Shown in pieces: positions 62,559-63,761 of a stretch of DNA of 63,761 bases. Source of the stretch: an uncultured Bacilli bacterium (GTDB lineage Bacteria > Bacillota_I > Bacilli_A > RF39 > UBA660); NCBI GenBank assembly GCA_934087515.1, contig CAKOIY010000002.1:1-63761 (forward strand). Direction: 5' to 3'. The translations under genes and the position numbers were made by a program. Position 1 is the stretch's first letter. Every line of letters starts with the position of its first letter. Under the pieces are notes generated by a model. The model ran no database searches. It was not told the origin of the DNA and saw nothing but the letters and a program-made list of their open reading frames with translations.

Positions 62559-63761
62559 ATGAAAAAAATACAAAGTCAAAATAGCAAACATTCGTTCGGG
62601 GGGGGGGTCATTTTACAACCTATTAAATAAAGATATAAAAGAATTAAATACGGTAATTCTGTCTTTATTTATAATAATATTTCTTTTTAGTGTAGGATTT
62701 ATTTCATATAAAATAACTAATTCTTATGCTTTATTCTCAGATGAAGTAACAGGAGAAAAAACAATCGAAGCTACAGTTAAATTATCTAATTTAGATAAAA
62801 GTGGTGCAAATGAACCAGTTTTAGATAGTTCAATGATACCAGTATATTATGATAGTAATAATAATGTATGGAAAAAAGCAGATATAAATAATCATAATGA
62901 TAAATATAAATGGTATGATTATGATAATAAGATGTGGGCAAATAGTGTTACAGTATCAGAAACAAATAGAAGTAAATACCAATCTGCAAATCTAGGAACA
63001 GAAATACCAATGGATGATATACTAACTATGGAGGTTTGGATACCAAGATATAAATATAAAGTATGGAATTATAATGCAAATGGAACAAAGACAAGTAGTC
63101 CTCAACAAATAGAAATAACATTTGAAAAAGATAATAAAAATACAAGTGAAATATCATGTCAAGATGCTATATCTGGAACAGAAGGGAAGCCATCTGAAGC
63201 ATGTAAGTTAAAAAGTAATAATGCTACATGTACAGATAGCACTTGTAATAATAAAACATATACACATCCAGCATTTACATTTGGTAATGAAGAAATAAAA
63301 GGATTCTGGATAGGAAAGTTTGAACTTACTGGAACAATAAGTAGTATAACAACAAAACCTAATTTAAGTAGTATAAGAAATCAAAGTGTAAGTACATTTG
63401 AAACAAATATAATGAATATGAAAAATAGTGGTAACAGGTATGGACTAAGCACAAATACAGATACACATATGATAAAGAATAGTGAATGGGGAGCAGTAGC
63501 ATACCTTTCACATTCAAAATATGGAACATGCACAAGTGGTAGTTGCACAGAAATTGGAATAAATAATAATTCTAATTATATGACTGGATGTGGTTCTTCA
63601 CCATCAAGTTCATCAAGTACAACATGTAATAGTTATAATACAAGTAATGGGATGCTTGCTTCAACAACTTTTAATATATATGGTGTATATGACATGAGTG
63701 GGTGTTCGTGGGAATATTTAATGTCTAATATAGTAAGTAATGATGGAGTGACTATGATGAG
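62559..63761 (+). CDS. Surface-protein family member 3 (partial, runs off the right edge), frameshifted at a G10 tract; FGE/CLec-like domain paralog of 26355..28301
   Basis: Not in the ORF track. ATG 62559 with SD. G10 at 62598-62607 leads to a stop at 62628. The +1 frame from 62608 is open to the window end and encodes a TM helix (VILSLFIIIFLFSVGF) and ...MIPVYYD...HPAFTFGNEEIKGFWIGKFELTG...GVYDMSGCSWEY. Confidence 0.8.
62598..62607 (+). repeat. Poly-G (G10) homopolymer inside the 5' coding region
   Basis: Counted directly: gttc-gggggggggg-tcatt. Same CATTCGTTC flank as the tract at 34305. Confidence 0.95.

Follow-up and report, generated by a model that had tools for sequence, protein, structure and literature searches.

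The window analysed here, a 63,761-nt stretch of DNA (28.5% guanine plus cytosine, GC) from an uncultured Bacilli lineage related to Mollicutes, contains three members of one gene family, which are designated genes A, B, and C. Gene C, located at the end of the window, and gene B each carry a run of ten guanines (G10) shortly downstream of the start codon. This poly-G tract is in all likelihood a translational phase-variation switch that acts by slipped-strand mispairing on a gene for an anchored protein, with the members of the family switching independently and most of them being OFF (out of frame). The features of gene C that bear on this reading are as follows.

62495..62523, plus strand: promoter-like site TTGAAA-17-TAGAAT (10/12 matches), conserved also in genes A and B as well as at homologous loci
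62542..62548, plus strand: Shine-Dalgarno (SD) sequence AAGGAGG, within the shared sequence AATACTAAGGAGG that precedes the start codon
62559..62630, plus strand: OFF-state frame, consisting of the ATG and 23 codons (MKKIQSQNSKHSFGGGVILQPIK) and then a stop codon (62628–62630)
62598..62607, plus strand: G10 homopolymer, the proposed switch tract of gene C, beginning 39 nt after ATG 62559
62608..63761, plus strand: body of gene C in the +1 frame, with 384 open codons, ended by the window edge
62653..62709, plus strand: hydrophobic segment VILSLFIIIFLFSVGFISY, a predicted membrane anchor or signal segment, followed by SYALFSD (assigned from the sequence; helix at residues 31–53 in a low-confidence model of the ON homologue P0122)
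62833..62835, plus strand: earliest canonical start codon of the long frame when the tract is G10, 3' of the anchor and corresponding to truncated database calls that start with MIPVYYD

The SD sequence, the ATG at 62559, the stop at 62628, and a +1 frame of more than 380 codons had been described in a first-pass annotation of this DNA, and all of them hold. Between the stop at 62560 and the ATG at 62833, the long frame of gene C contains no ATG, GTG, or TTG. Because no start codon precedes the anchor, gene C at G10 can yield only the 23-residue peptide or a fragment lacking the anchor. When the tract length was changed in silico, G9 and G12 joined ATG 62559 to the long frame, giving a product that begins MKKIQSQNSKHSFGGGSFYNLLNKDIKELNTVILSLF… and has the junction HSFGGGSFYNLL, and G8, G10, and G11 all led to an early stop. 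Homologues extend 489–502 codons beyond the tract, with …RLII(T/S)P as their C-terminal end, which places ~105–120 codons of gene C outside the window.

The two paralogues of gene C have the following features.

34263..38013, plus strand: gene B, with ATG 34263 and G10, after which the +1 frame is open for 1232 codons; a G9 tract would give 1249 aa
34305..34314, plus strand: second G10 tract, in gene B, with the same flank AACATTCGTTC
26355..28301, plus strand: gene A, the intact, tract-less paralogue, with AAA AAT AAA at 26394–26402, where genes B and C carry the tract

In gene B, the 11-nt flank AACATTCGTTC together with G10 occupies positions 34294–34314 and is the same as in gene C; the first-pass annotation had reported this identity for 34296–34314, and it is borne out. 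The first start codon in the long frame of gene B at G10 is TTG 34474, which lies beyond the membrane segment, and the frame is restored in silico by G9 or G12. At the homologous position, gene A reads ttt aaa aat aaa, again as annotated. The promoter, SD, and tail region are common to all three genes, and the CTTGAAAAA box is identical across the six sequences aligned over the 5' region. Gene C shares 76.7% identity over 317 aa with residues 217–531 of gene A, and genes A and B have a common N-terminal ectodomain with about 40% identity. Frame analysis also agrees with the earlier statement on expression states: both tract-bearing genes of the window are G10 and OFF, and the tract-less gene A is constitutively readable.

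The tracts stand apart from the base composition of the window. Runs of G or C with lengths of 1–5 number 11945, 2515, 294, 64, and 8, respectively, and are followed by two runs of 10 with nothing between, so that no G/C run in the 63.8 kb exceeds a length of 5 apart from the two G10 tracts. For a nine-G run, 0.04 occurrences were expected from dinucleotide shuffles versus 4 overlapping matches observed. Because GGG accounts for only 7.4% of the glycine codons in the long open reading frames (ORFs) of the window, and the eight other Gly-Gly-Gly stretches in the window are encoded by GGT or GGA codons, the homopolymer is a feature at the DNA level and not a by-product of encoding three glycines. 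Both tracts are within the range of hypermutable lengths, for which a cut-off of at least 7 residues is used for G/C homopolymers by PhasomeIt (PMC6321876). As a separate observation, the composition of the plus strand of the window is A 0.308, C 0.091, G 0.194, and T 0.407, and the GC skew ranges from +0.22 to +0.48 in all 4-kb bins, including those with minus-strand genes. This skew looks like a very strong replication-strand bias, which may bear on the tracts being G, not C, on this strand.

Across near-identical sequences and relatives, tract lengths range from 6 to 13 Gs. At a locus found in several samples between a gene for a 121-aa protein and a cation ATPase gene, the tract is G10 in contigs L007–L010, G11 in L014, and G12 in L094. 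The alignments of L094 with L007 (9545 bp) and with L014 (9150 bp) both have 0 mismatches, and the sole gap spans 2 bases in the former and 1 base in the latter; the flanks are invariant and the tract is the sole difference among the three aligned haplotypes. The invariance of tract length in populations, which the first-pass annotation had named as evidence against a switch, is contradicted by these differences among identical or near-identical sequences. Upstream of the tract at this locus (L007 6001–6021; L014 3990–4000; L094 4001–4036), two ATGs overlap in different frames. G12, which was found on three contigs, is read from the SD-led ATG (MKRTNVFPGGGGSIY…, P0277), and for G10, found in four samples, reading begins at the other ATG, located 13 nt further downstream (MFSLGGGSIY…, P0117); only G11 is OFF (P0275, a 428-aa call found on 24 contigs). 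With ATGs available in two frames, two of the three lengths are thus productive and give different N-termini.

The gene B orthologue in the syntenic contigs L096 and L097 (98.9% identity to the window over 12 kb) has a TTT-G6 tract that leaves it in frame (1249 aa; P0314). Also clustered with P0314 at 90% are alleles with HSFGGGYLNN (G9 type) and HSFGRGYLNN (interrupted), truncated calls of 1158–1213 aa, one allele with a newly gained start codon for the G10 frame (MKKNSLTNIRSGGGYLNN, P0392), and second-site-compensated alleles such as P0395 (HSFGGGVFKYTNN). Apparently 'locked' or repaired alleles were observed at L096 9504–9590 and L097 1367–1453 (orthologous to window 34263–34350) and in P0385, P0131, P0143, P0190, P0395, and P0396. 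In these alleles, the tract is cut to G6, interrupted (GRG, GEG, or LEG), or left at G10 and offset by an indel a few codons on, as in HSFGGGVFKYTNN, a pattern that suggests repeated loss of, and escape from, switching.

Among the closest relatives of gene C, in which the promoter, SD sequence, ATG, and flank are nearly base-for-base alike, L011 is G9 and ON (505 aa), and L012, L013, and L095 are G10, OFF, and represented by truncated calls. In nine 90% clusters, 22 distinct sequences of at least 400 aa are full-length (…HSFGGGSFY…) versus 64 that are truncated. Species-representative genomes contributed 80 loci (607 kb), in which 27 runs of G or C reach a length of at least 7, namely five of G9, nine of G10, eight of G11, one of G12, and four of G13. 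All 27 are G on the sense strand and lie a few dozen bases after the start codon of a long ORF, with approximately one third of them in frame; no poly-C run of at least 7, and no run placed elsewhere, was found in the same 607 kb.

Mixed states are also found within single genomes and samples. Metagenome contigs were scanned with the flank pattern AACATTCGTTCGGGGGG followed by at least 6 Gs, setting aside unrelated high-GC matches with G6. Sample ERZ857965 (contigs at ~11–12x coverage) contains 12 copies of the cassette, including the gene B orthologue, which is G10 there; one copy is G9, nine are G10, and two are G11, and only the G9 copy is in frame. Contigs L015, L025, L026, L030, and L055 of the metagenome-assembled genome (MAG) CAKOSE01 carry G10, G11, G12, G11, and G13, respectively. 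The grouping of contigs into one genome follows the MAG label for CAKOSE01 and equal coverage for ERZ857965. Paralogues in one genome or sample thus carry different tract lengths, in support of the independent switching proposed in the first-pass annotation; since each paralogue has its own tract, the members would switch independently.

Several points weigh against a phase-variation switch. Copies of this cassette most often have G10, which is one base too long for the ON state. This excess fits a mutational equilibrium with most copies silent, but it could also hide some read-through by polymerase slippage or a systematic +1 miscall. The lengths given above are those of assembled consensus sequences. 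For the slot of gene C itself, no near-identical contig was present in the collections searched, where the best DNA match was 92% and had other neighbours; the gene B orthologue and the 88–92% identical copies of gene C in other slots suggest that the tract would vary at this exact locus as well. The 3' end of gene C lies beyond the window, and an exact-protein look-up of the upstream pyruvate kinase, made for extending the contig past gene C, found no record. Finally, the Pfam matches of the family do not reach the threshold, and modelling with AlphaFold gave poor structures without a significant fold match.

Read-through and miscalling are both disfavoured as the main story because many independent tract lengths and compensated and re-phased alleles exist. 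If the homopolymers were miscalled, the true length would be G9 at both loci of the window, genes B and C would be ON, and the frameshifts would be errors of sequencing or assembly. Both window tracts need exactly −1, G10 is also modal for the cassette in other assemblies, OFF copies in species-representative genomes 'need −1' more often than 'need +1', and the sequencing technology behind the window is unspecified, all of which would fit such an error. However, independent short-read assemblies produced with different assemblers (k141 MEGAHIT-style and SPAdes NODE contigs) give G6, G9, G10, G11, G12, and G13; the single 9-kb haplotype at the ATPase-side locus exists in three lengths, each recovered repeatedly; and the compensated allele P0395 and the gained-start alleles (P0392 and MFSLGGG in L007) require that G10 alleles occur naturally. 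Miscalling at both loci is therefore improbable.

Recoding is somewhat less probable still. Here, G10 would be a fixed functional state, and full-length protein would be made from it through transcriptional slippage or ribosomal frameshifting without any switch in the DNA. The predominance of G10 would fit this reading. Long homopolymers can promote slippage of RNA polymerase, as documented mainly for A/T runs, so that some leaky expression from OFF alleles is plausible. Recoding sites, however, keep a fixed length across homologues, whereas the lengths here range from 6 to 13, with interrupted alleles (GEG, GRG, and LEG) and tract-less homologues; because the length is not conserved, the tract is not a recoding site of this kind, although no downstream stimulatory structure was sought. 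Alleles with G9 and G12, which are in frame with the same ATG, are common, and the compensated and alternative-start alleles indicate that G10 read from the main ATG is unproductive.

The coding capacity of the OFF copies bears on whether they are still genes. Their downstream ORFs span 480–1232 codons in AT-rich genomes, and the pairwise ratios of nonsynonymous to synonymous substitution rates (dN/dS) among gene C of the window, L012, L013, and L095, all of which are G10, are 0.26–0.40. These values point to purifying selection on the OFF copies. That gene C is a decaying copy inactivated by the frameshift, with the tract being incidental, is hardly credible: gene C is not in frame, its 3' end lies outside the window, and a few tract-bearing relatives have short downstream ORFs (86 codons in L032, 248 in L055, and 22 in L068), but 384 codons remain open at 28.5% GC, the dN/dS values against other OFF copies are low as given above, the promoter, SD sequence, and ATG are conserved, nearly all OFF relatives retain their long frames, and the frameshift falls exactly in the tract that varies among relatives.

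The phase-variation switch would work as follows. Slipped-strand mispairing during replication would add Gs to the run or remove them from it. Since the tract lies between the start codon and the membrane anchor, within what would be a short cytoplasmic tail, G9 or G12 would give the full-length protein, and G10 or G11 would give a peptide of ~23 residues and no anchored protein. Heritable shifts of ±1 would toggle translation at each paralogue separately, and most members would appear OFF in any assembled consensus. A tract of sufficient length, a toggle between frames, length polymorphism, and an intact ORF in the OFF state were all found, and these are the sequence-level marks of translational phase variation at simple sequence repeats. 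The slippage mechanism, its reversibility and rate, and the surface location of the products are inferred, as is a benefit that may consist in antigenic or adhesive variation or in escape from recognition by phages or the host.

The match to the poly-G phasomes of Campylobacter is close. In the poly-G/C phasome of Campylobacter, tract lengths peak at 9–10, and one third to one quarter of the tracts are in frame, with near-neutral drift (PMC6321876). The loci described here resemble those of Campylobacter jejuni and relatives (and also of Helicobacter, Neisseria, and Haemophilus) in having rare, strongly over-represented runs of 9–13 Gs within reading frames of an AT-rich genome, and resemble those of Campylobacter in that the Gs are on the coding strand, the lengths peak at 9–10, ON and OFF states are set by frameshift, and about one third to one quarter are in frame. 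They differ in that the tracts of Campylobacter are located in many unrelated genes, mostly for surface-glycan modification, whereas those found here belong to one paralogous family for anchored proteins with a shared 5' cassette (promoter, SD sequence, tail, and tract), and in that the host is an uncultured Bacilli lineage and neither a proteobacterial nor a campylobacterial pathogen.

The opa genes of Neisseria form a multigene family for surface proteins, with CTCTT repeats in the region encoding the signal peptide, independent switching, and most members OFF. The family described here shares with them a repeat in the leader-coding region of each copy and the OFF state of most copies (one of 12 being in frame in ERZ857965), and single genomes were found to hold a number of paralogues in different states at once, every one of them with a repeat of its own in this region. 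The repeat of opa is, however, a pentanucleotide and its products are beta-barrel outer-membrane proteins, whereas the repeat here is a mononucleotide and the anchor a single helix, and the taxa are unrelated.

Mollicutes derive from Bacilli, and homopolymer switches are known in Mycoplasma: Vaa of M. hominis and P78 of M. fermentans have poly-A in the 5' coding region, and vlp of M. hyorhinis has poly-A in the promoter. A poly-G tract has reportedly been found in gsmA of M. agalactiae. These systems are similar to the present one in their phylogenetic neighbourhood and in the position of a homopolymer near the 5' end of a surface gene, with truncated and full-length products; in addition, homologues of gene B carry PF03382 (DUF285), a Mycoplasma family. 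In contrast to the Mycoplasma systems, which are mostly poly-A and concern lipoproteins, the tract here is poly-G, and peptidoglycan genes are present (MurG, MurB, and penicillin-binding protein, in the window and in relatives).

The first-pass annotation had proposed a small contingency gene family. The contingency part of this proposal stands, but the family is not small: besides the at least 12 copies with the cassette in one sample, 377 stretches in species-representative genomes encode relatives, with at least 10 copies on one 706-kb contig, and database searches with genes A and C yielded >6000 proteins each, nearly all of them unnamed and from gut metagenome assemblies. The relatives are recorded under titles such as 'uncultured Bacilli bacterium', 'uncultured Tenericutes', 'uncultured Mycoplasma sp.', and 'Acholeplasma sp. 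CAG:878', and the lineage is common in human gut metagenomes (Hadza and others).

The proteins share a layout composed of a short basic tail with a recurring NK(H/Y)S(F/S) motif, the tract, a single hydrophobic helix, and a Cys-rich conserved ectodomain. The product of gene C is predicted to be membrane-anchored and is probably surface-exposed. Gene B and its relatives contain Listeria-Bacteroides repeats. The motif just after the membrane helix is similar in the three paralogues: SYALFSD (62700–62730), SYAAYDYSF (26490–26520), and SFAVFNYTF (34400–34430) in genes C, A, and B, respectively. It may resemble the cleavage region of SipW-dependent signal peptides (TasA/camelysin-type), although no Pfam or NCBIfam match supports this.

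Gene C had been described as encoding an FGE/CLec-like domain similar to that of gene A. The similarity to gene A is confirmed by the identity given above, but the domain label is not: against the gathering threshold of 23.3 bits for Pfam PF03781 (FGE-sulfatase), gene A scored 18.1 bits, and gene C had no match. Weak FGE-sulfatase matches (E of 0.1 or better; best E = 8.9e-5) were present in 25 of 50 family members. AlphaFold gave a predicted local distance difference test (pLDDT) score of 50 for P0122 (50 sequences) and of 61 for the C-terminal 432 aa of gene A (122 sequences); Foldseek searches of the Protein Data Bank (PDB) with the predicted models returned nothing with E below 1, and profile searches of NCBIfam and PDB returned nothing meaningful. 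The FGE/CLec fold is thus a lead only.

The C-terminal ~100 residues of the ectodomain (window 27800–28301; P0001–P0005) diverge fastest, and the clusters end in different tails; dN/dS rises from about 0.26–0.39 to 0.34–0.50 once the C-terminal part is counted. In phmmer searches, gene A weakly matched the variable protein TaqVP of Thermus (5vf4; E = 0.037), which is diversified by a diversity-generating retroelement (DGR). This match, the sub-threshold FGE-sulfatase similarity, and the divergent C-terminus are points of likeness to DGR variable proteins, and the first-pass annotation had drawn a link to a DGR at 28155. The link was not supported within the window, where the 3' end of gene A had no direct repeat that could serve as a template (only paralogue C matched) and a crude motif scan detected no ORF with a reverse transcriptase-like YxDD motif. 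The family differs from DGR proteins also in the lack of a significant fold match and in being set ON or OFF by tract length and not by targeted A-mutagenesis. Recombination between paralogues is an alternative to a DGR for the fast C-terminal divergence.

A broader model, to which we give an even chance, is that the cassette forms a hitherto undescribed, opa-like combinatorial surface-variation system and the main 'phasome' of a widespread group of gut Bacilli with small genomes. Each genome would have ten to twenty anchored paralogues headed by a mobile 5' module (promoter, SD sequence, NK(H/Y)S(F/S) tail, and Gn) spread by recombination. A mutational bias would hold the tracts at a modal OFF length of G10, so that few members would be displayed per cell, and copies could be 'locked' by interruption or shortening of the tract or 're-phased' by new start codons.

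Phase variation by simple repeats is textbook knowledge for a handful of cultured pathogens, and to our knowledge the attention given to phase variation in gut commensals has been almost entirely on invertible promoters. Literature searches combining phase variation, poly-G, and contingency loci with RF39, MAGs, gut metagenomes, and Mollicutes found no prior description. The mechanism itself is well known. In the literature searched, neither the protein family nor its shared 5' cassette nor the host lineage appears to have been described. What the present data add is a canonical poly-G switch, as we read it, in a very large family of anchored proteins of uncultured low-GC gut Bacilli. One practical consequence is that gene callers systematically truncate or miss the genes of this family (approximately three quarters of the distinct database sequences in the nine clusters are truncated calls), and presence/absence and 'pseudogene' calls in MAGs will be wrong for it. 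Another is that existing metagenomic reads give tract lengths, and these could serve as a culture-free readout of which surface proteins are expressed and of shifts between hosts or over time.

Members of the family appear to come and go between slots, as judged from comparisons of related contigs. Gene A is missing from an otherwise 98–99% identical, syntenic strain (window 26438–28335 versus L096 1843–2017). In the same strain, an additional gene (486 aa, minus strand) is inserted at the point that corresponds to window position 32258, and transposase fragments lie at the contig end. An A-like gene with 90% identity (P0003) is located in a different neighbourhood in L006; in the contigs with the gene A orthologues P0003 and P0004, synteny is lost after the histidine-kinase gene, and no tract is carried. 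Downstream of pyruvate kinase, the family member differs from one related genome to the next (window 60758–63761, L025 2397–4001, and L043 1911–5254). The window has a C-type member with G10 in this slot, L025 has a longer one that carries G11 and differs in its N-terminus, and L043 has one of the A type that lacks the tract. A 52-aa ORF of the window (62331–62489), located between the pyruvate kinase gene and the promoter of gene C, has no significant Pfam match, and the homology of the window to the C-like loci L011–L013 starts at ~62478, near the 3' end of this ORF.

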